Shown: piece by piece, positions 2,180-31,238 of the stretch
How the letters are laid out: every line of letters starts with the position of its first letter
Numbering within the stretch: position 1 is the first letter of the stretch
Source: Candidatus Saccharimonadota bacterium
GTDB taxonomy: Bacteria; Bacillota_I; Bacilli_A; Mycoplasmatales; Hepatoplasmataceae
Direction: 5' to 3'
Assembly: GCA_027925325.1 (NCBI GenBank)
Contig: AP027133.1
Location: 574,195-606,194 of the forward strand
Length of the DNA: 32,000 bases
Notes under the pieces: generated by a model
The model's database searches: none
Told to the model about the DNA's origin: nothing
The model's input: the letters and a program-made list of their open reading frames with translations, nothing else
Position numbers and translations under genes: made by a program

Positions 2180-3761
2180 ACTGATAAGCGGCATTAATAA
2201 AAGATTCAAAAAGTGGATCTAATTTATATAAGGTCGTATTGAATTCAGGATGAAATTGAACACCAATATAAAAATCATTATTTTTATATTCGACAATTTC
2301 CACTAAATTATTTTCCGGATTAATTCCTGAAAATAATAATCCTTTTTGTTCTAATTCCTTTTTATATTTATTATTAAACTCATAACGATGGCGATGTCTT
2401 TCCTTTATCATACTTTTCTTATATATTCTTTTTGCAAGCGTATTATCAATTAATTTACAATTATATTCACCCAAACGCATTGTTCCACCTAATTTTTTTA
2501 AATCTTGATCTTTAAGTAAATGAATAATAAAATTATTTTTATTTGGATTTAATTCTTCATGATAAACATTTAATTTAGCGATATTTTTGGCAAATTCTAA
2601 AATTAATAATTGCATCCCAAAACATATTCCAAGTAATGGAATATTATTTTCTCTTGCATATTTAATTGCACTAATTTTTCCTGAAGTTCCTTCAATTCCA
2701 AATCCTCCAGCGATAATTATTCCTGAAAAATTTTTTAAATCATTTACATTTAAAGATTTTGCATCAAATAATTCTATTTTTAAAGAAATTTTTTGATAAA
2801 TGGAAATAATTCTTAATGATTCAATAATTGAAAGATAAGAATCTTTTAAATTATGATATTTACCAACTATTACAATTTTAATTTCGCCAATTTTTTGATC
2901 TTTAATTAATTTATCAATCAATTGATAATTTTTAATTGGTGAATATTTTAAATTTAAATTTAAAATATCTGCAATTTTTTGATCAATTTTTTCATCTACT
3001 AATTTTTGAGGAATTTGATAAACACTATCAACGTTTTCAAGTTCAAAAATATAATCTTTGTGAACACTACAATTAGCTGAAATTTTATCAATGATTGTAG
3101 AAGAGATTTTTTCTTCACTTCGTGTTACGAGAAAATTAGGAAAAACACCAAGACTATGCAATTGTTTCACACTATGCTGAAAAGGTTTACTTTTATATTC
3201 TTTATTTATTTTAAGAAAGGGAATAAAACCAATATGAATATTTATGACATTTTCTCTTTGAAACTGCAATTGTCTAATCGTTTCAAAGTAAGGAATAGAT
3301 TCAATATCACCAACCGTACCACCAATTTCAACAACTAAAAGATCATATCCATTTAAATTTTTTAATACAAGTTCAATAATTTTGTCGATAACATTAGGAA
3401 TAATTTGAACTGTTTTACCCAAATATTTTCCCTTTCGTTCATCTTCTATTAAATTACTATAAATTTTTCCTGAACTAATTGAAGAATTTTTTGTAAGATT
3501 TTGATTAATAAATCTTTCATAATGACCAATATCTAAATCTGTTTCTCCGCCATCTCTAGTAACAAAAACCTCTCCATGTTCAATTGGTGAAATTGTCCCT
3601 GGATCAACATTTAAATAAGGATCAAATTTCATCATATTTACTTTTAATTTTCTTTCTTTAAAGATAGAAGCAAGCGAAGCAGAAAAAATACCTTTTCCTA
3701 ATGATGATAATACTCCACCTGTTATAAAAATTATCTTCCCATTTATTTTTCTATAATTCAT
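2154..3761 (-). CDS. pyrG: CTP synthase.
   Basis: Intact 535-aa ORF. It has the N-terminal synthetase domain (FITGGVLSSLGKGI) and the C-terminal glutamine amidotransferase domain (LGICFGMQ, HRHRYEFN, QFHPEF). Confidence 0.95.
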   Translation of the reverse strand: MNYRKINGKIIFITGGVLSSLGKGIFSASLASIFKERKLKVNMMKFDPYLNVDPGTISPIEHGEVFVTRDGGETDLDIGHYERFINQNLTKNSSISSGKIYSNLIEDERKGKYLGKTVQIIPNVIDKIIELVLKNLNGYDLLVVEIGGTVGDIESIPYFETIRQLQFQRENVINIHIGFIPFLKINKEYKSKPFQHSVKQLHSLGVFPNFLVTRSEEKISSTIIDKISANCSVHKDYIFELENVDSVYQIPQKLVDEKIDQKIADILNLNLKYSPIKNYQLIDKLIKDQKIGEIKIVIVGKYHNLKDSYLSIIESLRIISIYQKISLKIELFDAKSLNVNDLKNFSGIIIAGGFGIEGTSGKISAIKYARENNIPLLGICFGMQLLILEFAKNIAKLNVYHEELNPNKNNFIIHLLKDQDLKKLGGTMRLGEYNCKLIDNTLAKRIYKKSMIKERHRHRYEFNNKYKKELEQKGLLFSGINPENNLVEIVEYKNNDFYIGVQFHPEFNTTLYKLDPLFESFINAAYQYEKKRKNN

Positions 3762-3844
3762 AATATTAAAATTATAAATAAAATAGTAATTTTATTTAAT
3801 TGTAATTTTTATATACTTTATTAAAATATATTATTTAATTGTTT

Positions 3845-5323
3845 ATGAAAAAAATATTTATTACAACCCCTATTTACTATCCTAATGATAAATTGCATAT
3901 CGGTCATGCTTATACTACAATATTAGCTGATATTTATAAGAGATATAAAAAAATGCAAGGATATGAAGTTTTTTTTCTTACAGGTTCAGATGAACATGGG
4001 CAAAAAATAACAGAAAAAGCAAGACAAGAAAAGCAAAACGAAAAAGAATATGTAGATAAAATTATTGAAAATTTTAAATTATTATGAGCAAAATTAAATA
4101 TAAATTACGACTACTTCATAAGAACAACTGATAAATATCATGAACAATTTGTACAAGAAACTTTCCAAGAATTATTAACAAAATCTTACATATATAAGGG
4201 CAAATATAAAGGATTATATTGCAAATATGATGAAACATTTTTTACAGAGAAACAAGCTCTTGTTGGAAATATCTGTCCAGAATGTAAAAGAAAGTTAGTG
4301 TCCTTAGAAGAAGAAAGTTATTTTTTAAAAGTAACTTTATTTAAAAATTGAATAAAAGAAAAATTACAAAAAACCGATTTATTAACTCCAAATCATCTTA
4401 AAAAAGAATTAATAAATAATTTTTTAGATAAATCATTTTCTGATTTATCAATTACAAGAAAATCAATAAGATGAGGAATAAGTCTCTTAAATGATAAAAA
4501 TTATGTCATTTATGTCTGATTTGATGCACTATTAAATTATCTATCTGTTTTTAAAAATAAAGAAAGTAAATATAAAGTAACTGATATTTGAAAAAAAGAT
4601 TCGAATTGAGAAATTTTACAGATAATCGGAAAAGAAATTACAAGATTCCACGCATTATATTGACCGATTATTTTAAAAATGAAAAATTATCGTACTCCTA
4701 AAATTTTCGCTCACGGTTGAATAGTAACAGATCAAGGTGAGAAAATGTCGAAATCAAAAAATAATGCTATTGATCCATTATTTTTAATTGATAAATATGG
4801 AAGTGATGCAATTAGATTTTATTTGGTGAAAAATATTGCTCTAGGAGAAGATGGAAGATTTTCTGAAAATTTATTAATAAAAACAATCAATGGAATATTA
4901 GTAAATAAATATTCAAATTTAATCGCTCGAACAGATAAAATGTTAAATAAATATTTTGCAGGATTTATACCACAAGAAATAATTTATAGTGATTATGAGA
5001 TAAATTTGTCAAAAGAGATTAACAATTTCAAAAATAATTATTATAAGTTTATGGATCAATTTAAACTTAATCAAGCAATTGATGAAATTATTAAATATAT
5101 TGAAACTTTAAATAAATACATCGAAAATAAAGAACCTTGAAAAGAAAAAGATCAAAAATACTTAAAGGTAATCTTAAATTTTTTAACAAAAAATATTTTC
5201 GATCTTTCTTATCTATTTTCTCCTTTTATTCCAAATTCATTTCAAATTATAAATGAGTGATTAAATCAAGGAGATTTTACAAAAAAAATTAATAAAATAA
5301 ATTTTTTATTTACAAAAATATAA
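3845..5323 (+). CDS. metG: Methionine--tRNA ligase.
   Basis: Track fragments 3839..4087 and 4745..5140 are in one frame and are joined by several TGA=Trp codons. Motifs: HIGH (LHIGHAYT), KMSKS (EKMSKSKNN) and the CPECKRK zinc knuckle. I prefer the ATG at 3845 over the TTG at 3839. The gene ends at the TAA at 5321-5323. Confidence 0.93.
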
Positions 5324-6235
5324 TTATTTATATAATTCTGTATCAATTAATTTAACTTCCGTAAAATCAATCTTATTTAAATTGGCTTTATCAAAATTTA
5401 CCGCTTTTAATTCGGCTCCTTTTAAATTAGCTTTTGCAAGATTTGCTCTACTTAAATTTACATTAAGTAATTTAGCATTACTAAAATCAACATGAGATAA
5501 ATTTGCATAAGATAAATCTACATTTTCAAGAATTGCATTTTTTCAAGTTGATAAATTTAAATTAGATTTACTTAAATCTGTCTTTTTTAAAGTTGTTCCA
5601 TTAAAATTAGCATAACTGAAATTTGTTTTATTAAAATTACAATTTATAAATTTAGCATTAATAAAACTTCCTTTTTTAAGAGACATATTTTTAAAATTTG
5701 TTTTATTAAAATTTGCTCCATCAAAAATCGGAGCAATAAAATTTAAATAGCTAAATTTTGCATCCAAAAGATTTGTATTACTAAAATTAACTTTTCTTAA
5801 TTTTTCGCCAATAAAATTTATTAAAAATTTTTTATTATTAATTGAAAAATTACTTAGATTAGCATTTGTAAGATCACTTTTTGCAAATCTAATTTTTCTG
5901 AAATTAGCATCAGTAAGATTTACATCATTAAAGTTAGCATCAGTAAAATTAACTTTTAAAAAATTTGCTTTAGTAAGAGTTGCATTTTTAAAATTTGCTT
6001 CTGATAAATTACATTTTATGAAATTAGATTCCTTTAAATTTGTCTCTATAAAATTTGCCATCTTTAAATTAGATTTTTTAAATAATGAAAAACTTAAATT
6101 TGCTTTACTAAAATTAATTTTATTTAAATTTGATTTTGCAAAAAGAGAATTATTTAAATTTTTGGTTGAAAAATTAATTCCTGTTAAATTTTTATTTTTA
6201 ATTTCTGTAATTTCTTTTTTATTATTATTTTCCAT
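5324..6235 (-). CDS. Pentapeptide-repeat protein (303 aa), almost entirely A(D/N)LxX-type repeats.
   Basis: Track ORF 5543..6235 continues through the TGA at 5543 to the TAA at 5324; all codons were checked. Repeats of the type ANLSFSLFKKSNLKMANFIETNLKESNF and ANFTDANFNDVNLTDANF run along the whole length, and there are no TM segments. The start lies 11 nt downstream of the helicase-nuclease stop on the same strand. Confidence 0.85.
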
Positions 6236-6246
6236 AAAATTCCTTT

Positions 6247-9200
6247 CTATAAATTAATAGTATTTTTAATAATTTTTTCAATATTATTTAATTCCATTTT
6301 TTGATTATTAAATCAATTTGAAATTCAAATACGATAAAAATTATAACCTCTTTCTTTTAAAAAGTCTTGCTTTGAAATATCTCTCTCTCTTACAGATTTA
6401 TAAGAATTTTTAATCGCCTGATCAGATTCTATCAAAAGAATTATTTTATGATTTTCATCATAAAATAAAAAATCTGCTTTATATCCATAAGTTTTATCTC
6501 TATTTATTACATATAAATTATATCTTTTTGCTATCTTTATAAGTTCTTGATATAAATCTTTTTCAAATTTAGAATTAAAATTTTTAATACTAAATTGATT
6601 TTGATTGATTATTTTTTTATTATTATATGACTTAATACAATGTTTTAAAAATCTATAAAGAATATAAATTCCACTTTCTAAATTATCTTTATGTGCTTGA
6701 TTACGAATAAAAAAATTCTCAAAATCATTTTGTCTAATTGACGTAATTACATACATTTTTAATTTTGCTCTTGTAACCGCAACATTAATTCTATTTACTC
6801 CGCCAAATTTATTAATTGGACCAAAATTAAAAGATATTTTTCCTTCTTCATTTCTTCCATACAAAGTTGAAAAAATAATTATATCCCTTTCGTCCCCCTG
6901 AACATTTTCAATATTTTTAACAAAAAGATTGACATCATCACTATTAATTCAATTAGAAAAATTAAAATCATTATAACTTATACTTGCTAATTTCTCTGAA
7001 AGATATTTTTCTTGTTTTGAGTTCATTGTAATAATTCCAATAGATTTTTTATTTAAATTTAAATTATTTTTAATTTGATATAAAATTTCTATAATTTTAT
7101 CGATCTCGTTATGATTAAGTCCATTTTTATAAATTGAATCTTTTAATTCAAAATATTCTATCGGTTGAAAATTTTTATTTTTTCCATTTTTACTAATAAA
7201 TATAAGATTATCATTATAAAAAATATTATTTGAATATTCAATTAATTCCTTAAAATCAGAACGATAATGATATTTAAGCATAATATGTGGAAATTTAGTT
7301 TTTGCATAATTTAACAATGACAATTTATCATCAATTAAATTTTTCTCCTCAAATTTTTCAAATTCTTGATCAATATTTCTTGATACAAAAAAATTGGTTG
7401 GAGCTAATTGCTTTTCATCTCCTAAAATTACAACTTTTTTAGATCTTTCAATCGCAGGTAAACTTCTTTCAATAAACATCTGTGAAGCTTCATCAAAAAT
7501 AACAAGATCAAACTTATCCTTAAGATCAAAAATACTTGAAATTGTCTCAGGATTTAATAATCAAATTTTATATAAATTCTTAAAGGTATCTTTTTCAGTT
7601 TTTAAAAACATTTTGATACCTCATTTTTTTTTCGGATCAAAAACTATTCTTTTAAATTGGGGCGATGAATTTTCAAAATTTATTAAAAATTGCTTTGCTA
7701 AATAATACTTTGTTATTTCCGAGAATTTTTTAATTTTTGTTTGTCTTAAATTTATAAATTTATCATAATTATTTTTTCAATCAAATATTTGATCTCTTAA
7801 TTTAAATATATATTTATATTTATTAAGTCTTTCTCGAAAAATTTTAAATTCTATTATTTGCAAAAGTTTATCAAATTTTATTTTCTGACTTTTTATATAG
7901 TTAATAAAATCTTTTAGAAATGAAAATTCTTCTTCAGAAAAATTTTTTATTATTTGAAATTTGTTAAATTTCAAAGTTACATTTTGCTCTTCTTTTTTAT
8001 ATTTTGTAATTAATTTTTCCTGATTTTTTAAATTATCAAAAAAAATCTTATTATATAAATCTTCTATTTTAGTTTTAGTTTGATGATAATTTTTTAAATT
8101 TAAAAGACAATTTTGCAAAAATGTAATCATTTCTGTCATATCTTGATTTACTTGTAAATCTCTTTTTAAACCGGCGAATTTTCGATCATATTTTCTTTTG
8201 CTATTTAAAAATTTTTTCTTTAAAAGGAAAAAATTGTTTTTTAAATTTAAATATTTTTCTTCAATATTTTCCTTTTTCAAATAATTTGAAAATATATTAA
8301 AAACAAAATTATTTTTAATTACCAAATTAATATAATCAACTAAAAATGGTGTAAAAACTGAAAGATATATTAAATCATCACAAATCTTAAATAATTGTTC
8401 AAATCGATCAATTGGATAATCAATTAGAAATGAGCTTAAACGATCATTTCTAAGATATTCATAAATATCTTTATATTTTTTTTCATTTCAATTTTGTAAT
8501 AAATCTTTTCATAATAAAGATATCGTCTTTTTTTCTTTTTTTAATTCTTCTTTTTTTCCATTAATCAAAAAATTAAAATAATCAGAAATATCACCATCGT
8601 TTTTTTTAATAAAATCCAAACCATAAATATTAGCTATTTCATCTCTTAATTTGATCATTTGTTCAATTTTCGATAATAAATTATTTTCAAATAATTCTTT
8701 TATTTTATTTAAAAAAATAGAAAAATTATTATTTTTATTTCCTTCATTTAAAATAAAAGAGTTGATTTTTTCATCATAAATACTCTCTTTTAAAAATTCA
8801 TTAAAATTTTTAAATTTAAAATAAAACTCCTCAATTAATTCATATATTTTTTTATTTTCAAAAAATTCAATATCTTTATAAAAATCAATTGAATCCATAT
8901 TTTTTAAATACTCTACAATTTGATCTGATAAATTGTCAATCTTATTAATTTCTTCTTGAAATTTTTTATCATTAATAAATTCAAATTTTTCTGTTTCTAA
9001 TATTTTTTTTGCCGCTTCATAAGATTGATTTATCTGTTGATAAAAATCACCTTTATTATTCATATCTGTAAGATAAAACGCAAATTTATTTAAATTATTC
9101 AATCTTTGATAAATAACATCAAGCGCAGCTCTTTTTTCTGAAACTAAAGCAATTTTTTTATTTTTTAAAATAGCATCATAGATGATTGATAAAATTGTTT

Positions 9201-10311
9201 GTGATTTTCCTGTTCCAGGAGGTCCTCAAATAACTAAATTATTAGTCTTATTTTCATTTATTTTTTTTAAAGCAAAAAACTGTTGATTATTTAAATTATC
9301 AATATAAAATAATCCTTTTTCATCAAGATTATATGCATTTTTTTCAATATGATTATCAAACAAAAATTGAGAATTTTTTTGTGAATTTTTTTTATTTACT
9401 AAACTATATCTTTCTAGTTGTTTTGTAAAATATCCTTTTTCTAAAATTAAATTTAGATCTCTTTTTACAGCATTATCATACTTATCAAAAAAACCGATTG
9501 TAAAACTTTTTTCTATCTTAAAAAGAAAATTAAATTTTTCAATGTTACTATAATCTTTAAATTGATCTAAATTATCAGAATAAGATTCAAGATAGGTAAT
9601 AATTTCTTTTTTATTTCTTTTAAAATTAACAAATAAATTTTTAATATTTGATAAAAATGATTTTTCATAATCAAAATAATAATCTTTATTTTTTAAAAAA
9701 TTTTCAATTATAAAATTGTTAACTATAACATCTCTTGTATTATCATAATACATTCTTACTTTATGTAAATTATTATCAAATATTAAAATTATCGGAACAA
9801 AAAAAATTGGTGATCTAATAGGAATTGTCTTATTTATATTTGTAAAATTTGTAAGAAAATAATAAGGGACAAAATAAAAGGTTTGATAACCGATTTCATT
9901 TTTAATTTTTTGATTTTCTTTTTCAATATTATTAAAAATTAAAAAATTTTTTTCTTGATCTGTTTTTTTACTAGAAATTTTTTTTCTAATTTTTCTACAA
10001 TATATTTTTTCTTTATTTTTTATATAAAATAAATTAAAATTTTTAATAAAATTTTCCTTATTTTCAATAATATTCAATTTTAAATCAACTTTTAAATTCT
10101 TAATATCTTTTTTTAAAAAGCTATTTAATTTTAATAATGATTCTTCTTGTAAATTGGAAATTGAAAAATTATAATTAGTACTTTTCGATGTTCAAATATT
10201 GCGATTTCTCTTATTTAAATTTGTTAGCTTTTTTTGAAAATTTTCTAATTCCTGTTTAAATTTTTCTGATATCTTTATTTTTTGCAAATTATTTTCTTCT
10301 TTATGCTTCAT
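6247..10311 (-). CDS. Large (1354 aa) DUF4011-like / Upf1-like SF1 helicase / Vsr-DUF559-like endonuclease fusion (Hhe-like architecture).
   Basis: Five track ORFs (6325.., 6949.., 7777.., 8509.., 9226..) all share one frame and are separated only by TGA. The ends were checked codon by codon: ATG at 10311 preceded by AGGAG and an upstream TAA, and TAG at 6247. Motifs: Walker A VIWGPPGTGKSQT, motif II VIFDEASQM, motif III ILGDEKQLAPT, VQGDERDIIIFS, RINVAVTRAK. The C-terminal nuclease-like block is YKADFLFYDENHKIILLIESDQ...RERDISKQDFLKERGYNFYRIW. Confidence 0.8.
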
Positions 10312-10425
10312 TTCTTATCTCCTAAATTTTCAAAAAAATGAATAAGTAAAATTATTATATATTTTTATAAAAATATAAAATTAAGATATTTTTTAAATAT
10401 TTAATTAAAATATAATTAATTTAGA

Positions 10426-11154
10426 ATGACTAATGAAGAATTAATTTTTATTAAAAACAATAATTATGATTATTATTTAAGAATAATAACAAAAATAGAA
10501 GATGAGTATCAAAAAAGTAAAAAAATAAAACTAGCAAATATTTTTTCTGCTTTTTTTTATTATCTTGGTTATTTAATTTTGATTACTTTATTTCAAAACG
10601 CCGCTGCTTTAAGTTTTGCAAAAAAAGGACAATTTAGAAAAGCTGCTTTATATGCATTGCTTGGTTTAAATATTTTTTTCTTTTTATATTTAGGAGAAAG
10701 TAAAAAATGAAAAAAACATTATAATCAAAAAATTAAAAAAATAAATTTAACTCAAGAAATTCAAGAAAAAATTAAAAATCAAGAATTTTTAAAAGGCTTA
10801 ACAGAAGATAAATTAGAATTAATTAAAAAAGAAAAATTATTTAATACAAATCCTCCTAAAGATAAAATCAAATTAGGCTTAGTTTATGGCTCAAGTGTAA
10901 GAGCTAAAAATTTATTTAAAGATATTGGGGCAAATATTGTAAATGTAAGTGGAGGAAAAATGCAAAGTTATTTTTATCTTTTAAATGATGCAAGAGAAGA
11001 TGCGATCGAACAGATGATTAAAAATGCAATATTAACCTACGGTGAATTAGATAATAAAGAAATTCATAATATAAGATTATCAACATCACAAATTGCAAAT
11101 GGTGCAAGTGAAATTTTAGTATATGGAACGGTTGTTAAAAATAAAAATTCTTAA
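10426..11154 (+). CDS. Membrane-anchored YbjQ/UPF0145-domain protein (242 aa): two predicted N-terminal TM helices, a K/E-rich linker and a C-terminal YbjQ domain.
   Basis: Track ORFs 10426..10710 and 10960..11154 are in one frame and join through the TGA at 10708. The C-terminus LGLVYGSSVRAKNLFKDIGANIVNVSGGKMQSYFYLLNDAREDAIEQMIKNA...ILVYGTVVK aligns well by eye to E. coli YbjQ ([43 protein letters not shown]...VSGTAVK). Hydrophobic segments: IFSAFFYYLGYLILITLF and ALYALLGLNIFFFLYL. Confidence 0.72.
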
Positions 11155-12902
11155 TTTATTAAAATTACAGCAAATTTTTTATTCTCAGTTTCCATTTTAC
11201 TTACAAGTTCTTTGATTTGCTTTTCCTCTAAATAATCATCATGTCTTATTTGTTCAAAATTTCTTAAACCCATTTCCCCAATCATTTGATAAAGGGATGC
11301 AAGTGAATTTATTGCTCTCAATTCAAAATGAATTTCATAAATTTTATTAGGAAGAAAATCTCGATCACTATTATAATAAAGAATCTTTTTTGGTTGTTTA
11401 AAAATATTTTGTTCAAATTCTTGTTTTAAATAATTTTCAATTGCAAAAATCATCTCTAATAATTTTAGAGTATCAATTTTTTCTATATCATCTTTAATAC
11501 TATGCAATCCTTTTTCTAAAGATAATATTTTTGTGCTTCCAATTTGATCTCTTTCAAAAATATTTATTTTAAATTGACTATCATATAGAAAAGGTGAATG
11601 TGTTGCAAATATAATGTATATACTCTTAAATAATTCCTTATTTTTTGCAATTAAATTTTTTAAATATTTTTTTAATTCAATTTGTAAAGGAATTGATAAA
11701 TTATTTTCCGGTTCATCAACCATAATAATTTTAATTTGATCATTAGAATTATCATGAATAATAGAATTTAAAGTAATAATAAAATCTAAAAAGACCTTTG
11801 CTCCATTACTATTATTTTTACTTTCGTTACTTCCTATTAATCAATCACCTTTAGAATTAAATTGTAATTTTATTTGATTATTTGTAATATTTATTTTAAT
11901 TTCAAAATCAATGAATTCAAAATTTTGTAAAACCTTTTTTAAATTATTTCGAATCTTTTCTTCAATTTTTGATTTTTCTTCATTTTTTTCATTTCCATTA
12001 GGCATTTCATAATAAAATTTTAATTGTTCTTTTTCAGGATATAAAAAATTTAAAATATCATTAATTCTTGCCTTTTCCGAAAAAGCTTCACCTGTATTTA
12101 TTCTTTCAAACAAATAATTTAAATCAAAATTATATTCAAGATCATTAATTCTTGAATTATTTTTAAGATAAACAATTTCAGGTTTCTTGATCAAAATTTT
12201 TTCAATATTTAAAAAAACTCTAAAAATAAATTCAGTTTTTAAATAAATTTTAGTGTTATCTATATTTAAATAAGCAATCTCAGAAGTTAATTCAAATCTT
12301 CCTTTGCTTTTTGCATATGAAATTACTCTTTTAATCTTATTAAATATTTTTTCTAATAATTTTTGTGTTTTTAGACCAACATTGTAATCTCTAAATTCCT
12401 GATAAAAATTTTTATAGAAATCTTCATTATTAGGATTTTTAAGATATTCAAAAATAATTTTTTTATAAATTGAATTATTATCAAGTGCATGTAAATAATT
12501 ATTATTAGAATCTACTCCTACTTTTCTTCCTTCATTTCGAAAAATATTCATATATTTATCTTTTAAACTCTTTGGAAATAAATAATTTAAACTATTTTCT
12601 AATATTTTTAATTCTTTTTCCGAAAAATTATAATTAATAAAAACTCTCGATACGATATCTTCTTCTTTTTGGATCGCAAAATTTATTTTTTCAGAACCCT
12701 TAATATCACGTAAAAATTTAGTTCTTAAATCTAAATTATTTCTTCTTAAAAAAGTTACCGCTTCTAAAAAAGATGTTTTCCCAGAAGAATTTAAACCCAA
12801 AAGTAAATTTATATTATTACTATATAAATCTATCTTTTGTTTTTTAAAGATTGTCTTTATCCCCTCTACTTCAAAAGAAATTTTATTTTCTTCTATATTC
12901 AT
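11151..12902 (-). CDS. ABC/OLD-family (AAA_15/AAA_21-like) P-loop ATPase, 583 aa, with an unassigned C-terminal region of ~145 aa.
   Basis: Track ORFs 11151..11723 and 11841..12902 share a frame and join via the TGA at 11841; the gap codons were checked. Motifs: Walker A LLLGLNSSGKTSFLEA, a long helical insert, Walker B IKIIMVDEPENNLSIPLQ, and the His-switch region IIFATHSPFL. Confidence 0.75.
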
Positions 12903-13046
12903 ATTCTTAATTCTCCATTTTAATATATTTAATTTATATTTTTTAAATTATATATAATGTTTGATATAAAATAAATTATAAATATAATAATAATTTATCT
13001 TTTTTAAAATTTTTCGATTTAGATTAAATGTAACTTTTTGCCTATT

Positions 13047-13820
13047 TTAAATTTGATAAAATTTTTTAGCATTTTTATTTGTGATATCTATTAATTTATT
13101 TAATTCAATATTTTTCATTTTAGCAAATTCTTCAAGTACATATTTTAAATAAAAAGGATAATTTTTTTTACCACGAAATGGAACAGGAGTAAGATATGGG
13201 CAATCTGTTTCGAATAATATTTTCTCAAGTGGGATAATTTTTGCATTTTCTTTTACTTGATTTGCATTTTTAAATGTAAGAATTCCGTTGACACTAATCA
13301 TTAAATTTTTTAACTTTAAAAATTGTAAAAGAATTTTCTTTTCGCCGGTAAAAGAATGTATTAAATAATTTAAATTAGGAAATTTTAAGATTATTTCATA
13401 AATATCCTCATAAGCATCTCTTCCATGAATAACAACCGGTAAATTTAATTCATCCGCTAATTTTAACTGAAAAATAAATCATTTTTTTTGAATTATTTTT
13501 TCAGTTAATTTTATATTTCTTGAGTAATCAAGTCCTATTTCTCCAATAGCTTTAATTTTTTCTTTATTTTCTATGATTGTTTTTTTTAATCATTTAGCTT
13601 TATTTTGATCTAATTCTTTTACATCATAAGGATGAATTCCAAGCACAGGAATTAATTTTTTATATTTTTTATTTAAATTTAAAATTTCTTCTATTGAATT
13701 TAAATCTGTTCCAATATTAAAAACATATTCAAGTTCATTTAAAGATTTCTCTATTATATCTTCTAAATTATCCTGATAATATGACTTAACAAGATGAGCA
13801 TGTGTATCTATTGCTTTCAT
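13047..13820 (-). CDS. tatD: TatD-family metal-dependent DNase/hydrolase.
   Basis: Track ORFs 13047..13301 and 13590..13820 share a frame and join via the TGA codons at 13590 and 13479; the gap was checked. Motifs: IDTHAHL, GEIGLDY, PVVIHGRDA, HSFTG, ETDCPYL. Confidence 0.9.
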
Positions 13821-15896: not shown

Positions 15897-16829
15897 TTAA
15901 GAATATTTATTAAAAAAGTCCAAACTTAAAAGATATTTTTCTTTTAAAGTAAAAACATCTTTTATTATTTCTAATAATTTTCCTTCTGTAATTTTTCTAA
16001 TATAAAATTCACTTTTTAATTGATCTTTCAAATTATTAATATTTATAATAATGAGTTCATCCGAAATATTTTTTTTAAGATGTGGATTTAAAATCTTAAG
16101 AACATATTGATAAATTCCTACTTGTCTTCAATAATCAAAATTATTCCCCTCTGATGAGGTTTTAAGGTCACAAACATGAATCATTTTTGTATCCTTATTT
16201 ATAAGTAAAAAATCAATTTCTCCCATAAAAATTCCATCAGGATGATAAAATTTTAAATTATGTCCAATTACAACAAAATTTTTCTGATCCAAATAATTAA
16301 TAAATTCTAAAACTTCTGTTGATTGTGTTGAAATTAAGATATCTTCTTCATTTTCTAAATAATCAACAATTTCTCTTTCGATATTTTTTCCATAATCAAT
16401 CGATTCTTGCAGTTTTATTTTTCCAAGTATTTTAAGTGTTTGACTATAAATTGTTTGCTTAGTAAACATCTTTACTTGATCTTTAATTAATTTTAATTCA
16501 TATAAAACTCTTTTACCTTTTTCAGAATTTCAATTAATTCAATTTCAACCAAATTCATTTACCATTTTATCTAAATCTACATTAAATTCTTTTTCTTTTT
16601 TAATTTGTTTTAATTTATATTCTCCTAAAAGAGGGAGAATATAAGGTTCGTTAAATTTATTCAAAAATTCTGATAAATTAGTATTACTTGGAACACTTAA
16701 AAATTCATTATTTTGTTCAAGATAATAAAAATCTAAATTTTTATATGGTTGATATAATTTAGTTTTTTTAATTAATTTAAGTTTAATTTTTTGCTGTAAT
16801 TCTGGATAATAATAACGAAAATTTTTCAT
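15897..16829 (-). CDS. Hypothetical protein (310 aa) with a candidate PD-(D/E)xK nuclease motif.
   Basis: Track ORFs 16128..16469 and 16545..16829 share a frame. They join via the TGA codons at 16530/16539/16545 and extend past the TGA at 16128 to the TAA at 15897; all codons were checked. The candidate motif is GEIDFLLINKDTKMIHVCDLKTS (D...D-x-K). The ATG at 16829 abuts the rsmI stop at 16830. Confidence 0.5.
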
Positions 16830-21256: not shown

Positions 21257-21334
21257 TTTTACTCATATTATTATTTAAATATATTAGTTATTATAAAACT
21301 TTTATTAATTAATAATTAATAAAAGTAAATAAAA

Positions 21335-21412
21335 AAAGTCGCACATGACACTTCTCGACGTGGCTGCTTTGTTTCCAACCTGACCAGGTTACAAGGTTAT
21401 CATTGCGACAAT
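21335..21412 (-). ncRNA. ffs: Small (4.5S-type) signal recognition particle RNA.
   Basis: The minus-strand sequence gtcgcaatgataaccttgtaACCTGGTCAGGTTGGAAACAAAGCAGCCacgtcgagaagtgtcatgtgcgac contains the conserved SRP domain IV motif (CCAGGUCAGGU..GGAA..AGCAGCC). The 5' gtcgcaatga pairs with the 3' tcatgtgcgac, and a U-run follows. It lies immediately upstream of dnaX, as scr does in Bacillus. The ends are approximate (within a few nt). Confidence 0.8.
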
Positions 21413-21434
21413 AGAAATTATAACATTATTTAAT

Positions 21435-28235: not shown

Positions 28236-31200
28236 TTATCCTTCTTTTTTCGCTTTATATTGAATTACAGCATGTTTTATAAGTTCTGTTGTCATCGTAA
28301 ATAAAGCTGAAAATATTCAATAAATTGCCAATAAAACAGGAACAATTAATCCCATAAAAACAAACACACCGATCATAATATTTTGTGTTTTATTTTGTTT
28401 TTTCATCGCCTTTTTTGTCTGTTCATCAATTCTTTTTATTCCTTTTCGCTTATTTGAAAGCATTCTTGGCAATTTACTTGATAATCCTTGTGAAAAACCA
28501 ACAGCAACACCAACAAATAAATAAGCAAAAAATAAACTTCCGACACTAAACATTCCCGAAATTGCAGAAATTGAAAATGAAAATTGACCTACTGAGATAA
28601 TTTTATAAGCTGGTAAGGCCGAGATAATTATCCAAATTGAAAGAAAAATTGGCATCGTCACAAAAATCGTTCCTAAAGATGCAAATGGGTTAACATTATT
28701 CTTACGATAAAGAGCCATTATTTCTTGTTGCTTACGCATTTTCATTTGTTTATTCTTTTTATCATATTGTTGATATTTGGCATTTATTTGTGCAACTTGA
28801 GTCTGAACTTCTTGCATTTTTGATTGATTTTTATTAGAACCAAAAGACATCGCATATCCAATTCCTCTTAAAAGGAAAGTAATAATAAAAATTCCAATAA
28901 TTACCCCTCAAACAGCACCTACAGGAAAGATTGATTGAATGATAATTGATAATTGTGCTAATGGTCAAACAAAAAGCCCATACATCGGTCCATAAGATGG
29001 ATCTCATGCATCTTGTCAATCACCAATATCATCTGTAAAAATTTCATGATTATTATTTAAGCCATCTCCTTCGGCTTGACTTAAAATACGATAAAGAGAG
29101 GCTGTAATTCCAAAATTAGCAGTTGTTTCAACCAATGGATCAATCAAACCAGATTGAGAATCAGTATCAAAAGTTGTTCCTATACCGATAAAAGGAGTAT
29201 AAAAATTAACATCACCAGTAAGCGAACTTTTCTGTTTTAAATCCGTAACTTCATCACCATTTTCATCATTATAAATAATTTCATATCCAATATTTATATA
29301 TTGACTATAATCAATTAAATAATTGGCAATTAATTCTTCTCCTTCCACCGTAAATAAATTACTTAAATTATTATTATCGAAATCATCACTATTATCAAAG
29401 AAAAGAAATGCGTTGGGATCAAAATTATTAGCAGCATCTGCTTTATTTGATGCTAATTCGATTATTTGTCAATCTCCATTTTGATCTTCTTCCATAAATG
29501 CTCATCCTGAAGAATCAGTTCGATTAGATTGCCCAGCTTTTGTTCCATCCATTCAATCAGATGATCTTAATACTGATACATTTTCATAAGTTGTAAAATC
29601 ATCTTCATCGCTTAAATCATAATCATAATTACTTTGATATGTTGTTTGACTATTATAAGTCTCATTTTCATAATTATATCCTGTTATTAGTTGCATTGAT
29701 TTTTGACTAGGATAAAAAACCTCTGATGGATCAGAAACACTACGAGAATTAACAACATTATAAGATGTACCAACGATTAAATCGACAGAATCTATTCCAT
29801 TTCCCGTAGAACTATTAAGTAAATAAGGTGAAGTTAAAAAATTAAATCCAGTTGTATAATCAACATTTCCAGCATTAGGAGGACTACTATCTTCATAAAA
29901 AATATAACTAATAATTCCATCGACAGTTTTATTGACATTAGCAGGAATCGTAATATCTTCAATCGTTTGATCTTGATCACTATAATCTAATTGATAGTCA
30001 ATTACTTTTTCAAAATCATATTGAAAATTATCTGTTAAAACCGAAATTTGATCACTAATTGAATTAAATTCGCCTCCTGTTTGAGAATTAACTCCGCCAT
30101 AATAAGCTAAAATATTTGTATATAACTTAACTTCACTTTGATAAAGATCATATTTATCATTACTTACTTCTAATGAATCCTCATTTTGATCCTCAATTAA
30201 TTGATGAGAATAAGTAACACTATCAACAGGAACTCAATTTATTGGATCAATTAAATCAGAAGGACTAACATTACCTACTTGATGATAACTATCAATAAAT
30301 TCTTGTTCTGAATTATTATTTAGAGATGAGAAATCGGTTAAAGGACCGGTATAGTAAGCAAATCCACGTTGCACAGTTGAATAATAATCATCACCATTTA
30401 CAACTTCATCACCATTACTATCAATTACATTATCATTTTCATCATAAGAAAATCCTTGAATATATGCAAGAAAATCATCACTATATAAAGAATTATTATC
30501 AGCAAGATAAGCATAAAATTCAACAGCATCGATCTCTTGATTGTCATTTCCATAAGGATTTGTGACTTCATTATAAATATCATATTCTTCTAAATTAAAT
30601 GTAGTATCTTCTAATCCGTATTGATAAAATTGCTTCTTAACATCACTTGAGAAATAATCAATATTAAAAGGCATTATTAAATATTGATCATCTCTTAAAT
30701 CAACATTTGTTCAATCATATCCTAAAAAAGCTGTTGAATAATAAGTACTAAAAGAAAGATTAGCGACTGATGATAATAAAGAAACTTGATAATCAGCTAT
30801 ATTTTCACCAGGAGTAGTAAATAAGTTATAATCAATATCTTCAGGATCATAATTTTCATTATTTATCCCTAGTAAGTAATTGTAATTAGGTCGATATATT
30901 TCAAATGGCAATAAGAAATTATCCTCAATTATATCATCAGTAAATTGATTATCTCCTGTTGCAACAATTTGATAAGAAAATGTTGATTTTTGTCCTTTAT
31001 ACATATTAGGAACAACAGATTGCTTATTTCCATAAAATTCAAGTCCTCTAGAAACCTGTTGTGTTGTAGTATGCATAAACTCAGCAGCACAACCTCAAAG
31101 GGTAACAACTGTTAAAAAAGAAAATAAAATTCACTTACTATACTTTCTAATTCATTTTAAAAATTTGCTAAAAGAAAAATGACCAGATTCATCTGCTTTC

Positions 31201-31238
31201 TTTACTTCTTCATAAAATGAGTGATTACCTTTTGCCAT
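28236..31238 (-). CDS. yidC: Membrane protein insertase YidC, 1000 aa. It has a lipoprotein-type signal sequence and an unusually large (~700 aa) extracytoplasmic D/N/Y/S-rich domain before the Oxa1/YidC core.
   Basis: Track ORFs 28317.., 29016.., 30234.. and 30711.. all share one frame. I read every codon of the gaps (28851-29015, 29349-30233, 30675-30710, 31077-31238, 28236-28316) and found only TGA, with no TAA or TAG. The start is the ATG at 31238 (a TAG lies upstream). The signal and lipobox read ILFSFLTVVTLWGCAAE. The C-terminal core (FVWPLAQLS...MQEVQTQVAQINAKY...KQQEIMALYRKNNVNPFASL...MPIFLSIW) is YidC-like. It follows rnpA in the conserved order. Confidence 0.8.

Follow-up and report, generated by a model that had tools for sequence, protein, structure and literature searches.

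A DUF4011-superfamily helicase-nuclease with conserved catalytic motifs and its basic pentapeptide-repeat neighbor in Candidatus Hepatoplasma

Results and Discussion

We analyzed a 32,000-nt stretch of the genome of Candidatus Hepatoplasma scabrum (the whole of which is called the window below), where a gene encoding a helicase fused to a nuclease (positions 6247-10311, minus strand) is followed by a gene encoding a pentapeptide-repeat protein (PRP; positions 5324-6235, minus strand). An initial annotation had proposed that the two form a two-component variant of the anti-phage system Hhe, with the PRP mimicking DNA. The explanation that we regard as rather probable is a different one: the first gene would encode an intact and vertically kept helicase-nuclease of the DUF4011 superfamily, and the second a genus-specific basic protein whose adjacency can be explained by synteny. 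For the helicase-nuclease, a defense-type role in which it restricts foreign DNA is modestly favored.

Organization of the two genes

The window has a G+C content of about 20%, and its open reading frames (ORFs) were read with translation table 4, in which TGA encodes tryptophan; table 11 breaks the region into many short minus-strand ORFs. Read in this way, the helicase-nuclease gene is one ORF of 1354 residues with 10 in-frame TGA-Trp codons, and its product is a 100% match to HPPSJP_5240 from the metagenome-assembled genome of Ca. H. scabrum, a mollicute of the isopod Porcellio scaber, where it comes from the digestive gland (PMC10928387). The PRP gene is an ORF of 303 residues with 1 TGA-Trp codon. 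Both ORFs, their common strand and the 11 nt between them are exactly those first annotated, and the guess of a reduced, Mollicutes-like genome was also correct, since this is a mollicute with a genome of 606 kb.

The stop codon TAG of the helicase gene (6247-6249) is followed by the 11-nt spacer aaaggaatttt (6236-6246, minus strand), which includes the Shine-Dalgarno-like AAGGA (6241-6245), and then by the start codon ATG of the PRP gene (6233-6235). The helicase gene itself is preceded by the Shine-Dalgarno sequence AGGAG (10319-10323, minus strand), 7 nt before its ATG. No terminator-like hairpin was found between the two genes, which are probably co-transcribed. At the other end of the PRP gene lies the convergent metG (3839-5323, plus strand), whose stop codon abuts that of the PRP gene with 0 intergenic bases, so that each transcript must end within, or run into, the opposing gene; nothing resembling a terminator was found at this junction (5323/5324). 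The locus would be a small transcription unit, delimited upstream by a divergent gene and downstream by the convergent metG. A promoter scan gave results at the level of chance (65 sites versus 61.6 expected) and is uninformative at 20% GC.

The helicase-nuclease retains its catalytic motifs

All the features of the helicase-nuclease given here are on the minus strand. Its superfamily 1 (SF1) helicase core is marked by Walker A or motif I, GPPGTGKS (residues 363-370; 9202-9225), and by motif II, DEASQ (residues 940-944; 7480-7494), both invariant in an alignment of 20 sequences from bacteria and archaea. Across the same alignment, there is no or almost no variation in Walker A, DEASQ, GDEKQLAP, VQGDER and NVAVTRA. 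In the window protein the motifs start at residue 363 (GPPGTGKSQT), 940 (DEASQ), 964 (GDEKQLAPT), 1137 (VQGDERD) and 1177 (VAVTRAK). The Pfam domains AAA_11 (55.7 bits) and AAA_12 (65 bits) both score above their cutoffs, the latter covering helicase domain 2A (residues 1006-1191; 6739-7296) with VQGDERD and NVAVTRAK. The core is split between motifs I and II by a Lys/Asn-rich, poorly conserved insertion of about 480 residues (residues ~420-900; 7612-9054), which has few conserved alignment columns and aligns only within the full-length profile match.

The C-terminus (residues 1249-1346; 6274-6567) matches the MTES_1575/Vsr-like PD-(D/E)xK nuclease domain PF18741 with 54.1 bits for a cutoff of 38.2, which agrees with the Vsr-type nuclease expected there. 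In 4/4 Hepatoplasma orthologs one finds its motifs GYKADF, LLIESDQ, RE(R/K)D and RGYNFYR(I/V)W conserved, together with D1280, E1295 and D1297, a set that would be the putative counterpart of E1731 in Hhe. Every motif quoted in the initial annotation, including ADFLF, LLIESDQ, RERD and RGYNFYRIW, is present in the protein. Judged by its motifs, the helicase-nuclease thus appears to be catalytically intact.

The N-terminus required a more indirect approach. A direct Pfam match to DUF4011 (PF13195) was not obtained in the window protein at E<=10, even with the N-terminal 352 residues alone. However, the domain scores above its cutoff of 22.2 bits in the ortholog P0003, which is 73% identical (27.8 bits), it reaches 42.4 bits in the 39%-identical full-length homolog P0005, and it is carried by most of the 120 best helicase homologs. 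Moreover, a profile hidden Markov model built from 58 non-Hepatoplasma homologs matches residues 3-340 (9292-10305) with E=1.9e-35. The matches of the orthologs and of this profile point to a diverged DUF4011-type region, so the DUF4011-like N-terminus claimed at the outset stands by way of its relatives and not by a direct match.

A divergent relative of Hhe and ProA

The best PADLOC model for the helicase-nuclease is the candidate PDC-S37 (E=2.5e-121, 405 bits, best stretch residues 723-1352). Hhe comes second (E=1.6e-69, 233 bits, best stretch residues 933-1344), followed by weak matches to MkoA/MkoC. Among the curated NCBIfam models, the top one is the anti-phage ProA (NF058533), with 370.5 bits over residues 705-1350; this model is 1903 positions long and its cutoff of 1500 bits is missed. 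The Hhe model (NF042953) gives 288 bits, with a best stretch limited to residues 898-1344, versus a cutoff of 2000. On such scores the protein would belong, as a divergent member, to the widespread DUF4011 helicase-nuclease superfamily, and is an equivalog of neither Hhe nor ProA.

Hhe is said to be the single-gene anti-phage system of Gao et al. 2020. The likeness to it (NF042953, PADLOC PDLC02194) lies in a single polypeptide that joins a DUF4011-type N-terminus, an AAA_11/AAA_12 SF1 helicase and a C-terminal Vsr-like nuclease, and the nuclease of the window protein also retains acidic catalytic residues. On the other hand, the window protein has 1354 residues versus about 1800-1900, only its C-terminal third aligns well, and its gene is chromosomally fixed in a reduced genome with a PRP gene downstream. 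The shared architecture and the homology to Hhe were thus rightly recognized at first, but not the identity with it. PDC-S37 is likewise a single-gene helicase-nuclease; its model has however 1550 positions, of which only two stretches are matched, and no paper naming this candidate was found in the literature searched. The only solved structures detectable by sequence are those of Upf1-like SF1 helicases, with weak matches (E of 1e-7 or worse). The Upf1-like SF1B helicases (IGHMBP2/Smubp-2, Upf1/NAM7, Sen1) share the common helicase core motifs, but these eukaryotic RNA/DNA helicases have neither a DUF4011 N-terminus nor a fused PD-(D/E)xK nuclease.

Activity of Hhe has been reported against lambda, T3, T7 and PhiV-1, and the substitution E1731A in its Vsr-type nuclease abolishes defense (bioRxiv 10.1101/2022.06.16.496414). 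This loss of activity fits a mechanism in which a motor delivers a DNA nuclease, and we infer a comparable one for the window protein. From what is known of the family, its SF1 motor would translocate on or unwind DNA with ATP and deliver the fused nuclease, which would then cut the substrate. The most probable role would be the restriction of invading DNA, with genome maintenance as the main alternative.

The pentapeptide-repeat protein is basic

The second protein was described initially as built almost entirely of pentapeptide repeats, and it is indeed predicted to be a true beta-helix. Pfam Pentapeptide (PF00805) matches it with 177 bits in 9 stretches, and its sequence can be read as about 58 consecutive units A/S/T/V-N/D-L/F-x-x, whose register shifts once, near residues 133-138. 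L/F and small residues occupy the inward positions i and i-2. The AlphaFold2 model of residues 1-230 is a beta-helix with a mean predicted local distance difference test (pLDDT) score of 88.8 and a dip at about 125-145. When this model was compared to the Protein Data Bank (PDB) with Foldseek, the best matches were HetL (4e-13), designed beta1 solenoids and Np275/276, with QnrB1, MfpA and AlbG as further matches at about 1e-8. The model therefore suggests a generic pentapeptide fold with no special affinity to the topoisomerase protectors. The cyanobacterial PRP HetL (PDB 3DU1) and the designed beta1 solenoids are the best matches in structure and in sequence, but the identity is about 21-25% and the HetL cutoff of 260 bits is not reached; what is shared is generic to such repeats and uninformative on function. 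More generally, the PRP meets no curated NCBIfam PRP cutoff (HetL 145/260, Qnr 75/240, QnrB 58/460 and MfpA 51/360 bits).

MfpA and Qnr need an acidic surface resembling that of DNA for their mimicry. The PRP has an isoelectric point (pI) of 9.87, with 45 K/R versus 23 D/E and a net charge of +22, and its orthologs have pI values of 9.9-10.1. The known mimics are acidic (pI 5.33 for MfpA and 5.00 for QnrB1); the reference sequences were checked against their structures, MfpA being identical to 2BM4 at 182/183 positions and QnrB1 identical to 2XTW. Within the repeat register, 33/45 of the K/R residues of the PRP occupy i+1 and i+2, positions that are directed outward in PRP structures. The charge, as judged here from sequence and repeat register, is not forced by AT bias, since the window also encodes proteins of pI 4.2 and 5.0. 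In addition, the pentapeptide periodicity reaches residue ~300 of 303, and repeats that run to within 3 residues of the C-terminus leave no room for a dimerization helix of the MfpA/Qnr kind. An acidic B-DNA mimic of this kind is thus contradicted by the sequence and unlikely, and the premise of DNA mimicry fails on charge. DNA mimicry cannot be deduced from a pentapeptide-repeat fold, and the net charge is worth checking first.

These data bear directly on the proposal of a two-component Hhe variant, in which a B-DNA-mimicking PRP would fill the DNA channel or the nuclease site of the enzyme as an inhibitor or antitoxin. The common strand, the 11-nt gap, the missing terminator, the retention of the pair in 4/4 Hepatoplasma contigs and a fold of the same class as MfpA, Qnr and AlbG would all suit such a proposal. 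However, the PRP and its orthologs are strongly basic with their K/R residues outward, in a window where acidic proteins do exist; the Qnr and MfpA scores are those given above, the C-terminal helix has no place, and no linkage was seen at 120 other loci (see below). We consider this proposal very improbable.

Another possibility would be that the PRP acts independently of the helicase-nuclease, as a protector of DNA gyrase similar to Qnr, MfpA or AlbG. Chromosomal Qnr-like PRPs are common in Firmicutes, gyrA and gyrB are found 12-21 kb away in the window, and the PRP has its right-handed quadrilateral pentapeptide beta-helix in common with MfpA, QnrB1, AlbG and EfsQnr. But the PRP gene does not adjoin the gyrase genes, the protein stays far under all the Qnr, MfpA and SmQnr cutoffs, and its best structural matches are HetL and the designed solenoids. 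Besides being basic and devoid of a dimerization helix, it is about 90 residues longer (303 residues versus 183-218). A gyrase protector is hardly to be expected here.

All that the homolog search with the PRP yielded were generic matches, mostly from cyanobacteria, of about 30% identity; even the query itself was missing. By exact look-up, the Hepatoplasma PRPs (window 5324-6235, L001 12065-12973 and L002 8303-9208) are absent from the 15-billion-protein collection that was searched, and this search therefore says nothing on the distribution of PRP orthologs. That collection may systematically under-represent Lys/Asn-rich low-complexity proteins from AT-rich genomes. A PRP scan of metagenome contigs gave one generic match at 32% identity and no further orthologous loci. 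We also observed that the Hepatoplasma PRPs carry no precomputed Pfam match in gene tables, despite the 177 bits on PF00805.

Several of the more distant PRP homologs, mostly cyanobacterial or metagenomic (P0128, P0140, P0160, P0168, P0182, P0208, P0224 and P0237), are fused to TIR, Mrr_cat, PLDc_2 or HSDR_N domains. Such fusions indicate that pentapeptide modules recur in architectures resembling conflict systems. Orc/Cdc6-PRP fusions also exist.

The pairing is restricted to one collinear genus

The linkage between the two genes was surveyed at 120 homolog loci, 82 genomic and 38 viral (IMG/VR), with flanks of up to 6 kb. Eighty of the genomic loci came from representative genomes of Bacillota, Mollicutes, Bacteroidota, Proteobacteria, Cyanobacteria and archaea, and the other 2 were a mollicute homolog of 39% identity and the homolog of Candidatus Tyloplasma litorale. 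The PRP detector recovered 120/120 known PRPs in a control.

The three closest helicase homologs (63-73% identity) belong to H. crinochetorum and to two Logan-assembled contigs. In all three, an orthologous PRP gene directly follows on the same strand, after gaps of 8, 16 and 11 nt, so that the helicase-PRP pair is found in 4/4 Hepatoplasma contigs. The whole block is collinear in Hepatoplasma, with TatD, AAA_15, (YbjQ), helicase, PRP and the convergent methionyl-tRNA synthetase (MetRS) in this order, and the genomes of H. scabrum and H. crinochetorum are extensively collinear (PMC10928387). It follows from this collinearity that the PRP gene adjoins metG as faithfully as it adjoins the helicase gene.

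Outside Hepatoplasma, no PRP ORF was found near the helicase at any of the 82 genomic or 38 viral loci. No PRP remnant was detected by tblastn (E<=1, both genetic codes) in the 82 genomic loci, and none of the 120 best homologs carries a pentapeptide Pfam domain fused to the helicase. The next gene is a 66-residue ORF in the 39%-identical mollicute homolog and ybeY in Ca. T. litorale. Across 77 complete homolog loci, the downstream genes are heterogeneous, the largest recurrent family being present at 3 loci, which argues that the helicase family is normally stand-alone. The expectation that helicase-nuclease and PRP genes would be linked across genomes was thus not borne out beyond the genus, and genus-wide synteny explains the adjacency of the PRP gene at least as well as functional coupling.

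The ratio of nonsynonymous to synonymous substitution rates (dN/dS) was computed by the Nei-Gojobori method among the three full Hepatoplasma lineages. It amounts to 0.33-0.41 for the PRP, 0.20-0.26 for the helicase-nuclease, 0.16-0.20 for MetRS and 0.10-0.16 for the AAA_15 ATPase encoded upstream, but the extreme composition probably biases dS, and only the ranking of these values is reliable. The helicase and PRP genes are real and under purifying selection, and the PRP gene has the most relaxed constraint of the four genes compared.

If the PRP acts with the enzyme, its basic charge makes a cationic rod more plausible than DNA mimicry. Translated from its own ribosome-binding site, the PRP could then bind nucleic acid or an acidic protein surface. 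It would thus be a genus-specific, non-mimic subunit, attached to nucleic acid or to an acidic patch of the helicase-nuclease and serving as a tether, sensor, gate or specificity factor. The discrete two-gene unit with its tight and conserved spacing is consistent with such a partnership, as are the purifying selection on both genes, the basic surface deduced from the repeat register and the occurrence of PRP modules in conflict systems (Hailong HalA, Orc/Cdc6-PRP, PRP-TIR, PRP-Mrr and PRP-PLD). However, the pair does not co-occur outside one collinear genus, the helicase family otherwise stands alone, unrelated genes are commonly mixed in mollicute operons and the PRP gene is the least constrained of the block. 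Support for a partnership is limited to the adjacency within this genus, and we think it unlikely. As for the two-component variant first proposed, it is poorly supported, with a basic PRP and a pairing seen in a single collinear genus.

A parallel can be drawn with defense systems made of two proteins. Hachiman HamAB and Gabija GajAB similarly combine a helicase or a nuclease with a small partner, but HamA, GajA and HalB show no homology to the window pair, and the HamAB, GajAB and Hailong pairs co-occur across many phyla whereas the window pair is confined to one genus. Hailong HalA, which is described as carrying an ion-channel domain besides pentapeptide repeats, shows that a protein containing pentapeptide repeats can be a defense component; the PRP nevertheless scores 57 bits versus a cutoff of 250 with HalA. 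As was stated initially, no described system is known to pair these protein types, and none was found among the PADLOC models or in the literature searched. If the partnership were true, it would represent a two-component variant not described so far, in which a defense helicase-nuclease has a PRP partner for the first time. It would also provide a new type of accessory for the superfamily, and a non-Qnr PRP would be assigned a function, which is rare.

Defense or housekeeping

The characterized proteins nearest to the helicase-nuclease, Hhe and ProA, are anti-phage. About a dozen full-length members of the family are found on (pro)viral contigs of IMG/VR, and the neighborhoods of the family are highly variable. 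The gene context of the helicase differs between Hepatoplasma, the 39%-identical mollicute homolog and Tyloplasma. In the Tyloplasma copy (L005 8001-11705, P0016), the helicase motifs are kept but the nuclease motif KADF is replaced by KINY and IESD by LFEN. This nuclease is probably inactive, and the apparent loss of its residues suggests that the gene is dispensable. These observations are those that lead us to lean modestly towards defense.

On the other hand, one could assume that the helicase-nuclease is a housekeeping enzyme of DNA repair or replication restart, with the PRP as an unrelated passenger. Homologs are kept in the small-genome mollicutes Tyloplasma, Spiroplasma, Izemoplasma and Acholeplasma, and the genome paper names only restriction-modification systems (R-M) and CRISPR-Cas9 in its defense inventory of Hepatoplasmataceae (PMC10928387). 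The anti-phage relatives, the (pro)viral contigs, the changing gene context and the Tyloplasma copy argue against such a role, and we regard it as possible, though on the unlikely side.

Several points count against the explanation that we favor, the first three of which also speak for a housekeeping role. The helicase gene sits at a fixed position among housekeeping genes (metG, tatD, mnmE) in a 606-kb genome. It evolves about as slowly as MetRS in terms of dN/dS. A DUF4011 gene is core in every Pseudomonas aeruginosa isolate (PMC10250203). The helicase-nuclease lies far under the curated cutoffs of both Hhe and ProA, and its putative defense role would rest on remote homology, PDC-S37 being a candidate only. 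As regards the pairing, the survey took in 120 loci and at most 6 kb of their flanks, on contigs some of which are short, and the Hepatoplasma PRPs are missing from the protein collection, in which the wider distribution of the PRP lineage is poorly covered. Finally, the discrete two-gene unit has been retained through about 30-35% of protein divergence, which is weak evidence for coupling.

Under the favored explanation of an intact helicase-nuclease with a syntenic PRP neighbor, the enzyme may be a missing entry in the published defense inventory of Hepatoplasmataceae. Enzymes of the Hhe/ProA/PDC-S37 type would then persist, with their catalytic motifs intact, in a symbiont genome of about 600 kb beside CRISPR-Cas9. 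Such helicase-nucleases can behave like slow core genes, as does the DUF4011 gene of P. aeruginosa.

Neighboring genes and other features of the window

Upstream of the helicase gene and divergent from it, positions 10426-11154 (plus strand) encode a YbjQ_1-domain protein whose N-terminal half is hydrophobic. The YbjQ gene is present in L002 and L003 and absent from H. crinochetorum L001, where a gap of 324 nt is found. Beyond it, positions 11151-12902 (minus strand) encode a 583-residue AAA_15/AAA_21 ATPase with weak PADLOC matches of the AriA, PtuA and GajA type and no adjacent partner nuclease. Within the block, its gene is the best conserved one (84-91% identity). We rejected the idea that the AAA_15 and YbjQ genes are parts of a wider conserved system, as they accompany the helicase only in Hepatoplasma. 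The insertion of a mobile element was rejected as well: the repeats in 3500-13200 correspond to AT-rich low complexity or to the periodicity of the PRP gene in multiples of 15 nt, and no tRNA, Rfam element or flanking repeat marks an insertion around the locus.

Elsewhere in the window, two conserved-looking ORFs of 349 and 310 residues (341-1390 and 15897-16829, both minus strand) have no Pfam match at E<=1e-5. The window contains no tRNA gene, and its only Rfam match is the bacterial small signal recognition particle (SRP) RNA (RF00169, 52.3 bits; 21323-21419, minus strand), located between serS and dnaX. Lastly, positions 28236-31238 (minus strand) encode a YidC of 1000 residues with 13 TGA-Trp codons, in which the 60KD_IMP domain covers only residues 780-987. 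Its N-terminal extension of about 750 residues is extremely acidic and rich in Asp, Asn and Tyr (overall pI 4.2), and is an unusual surface-exposed addition to this essential insertase.

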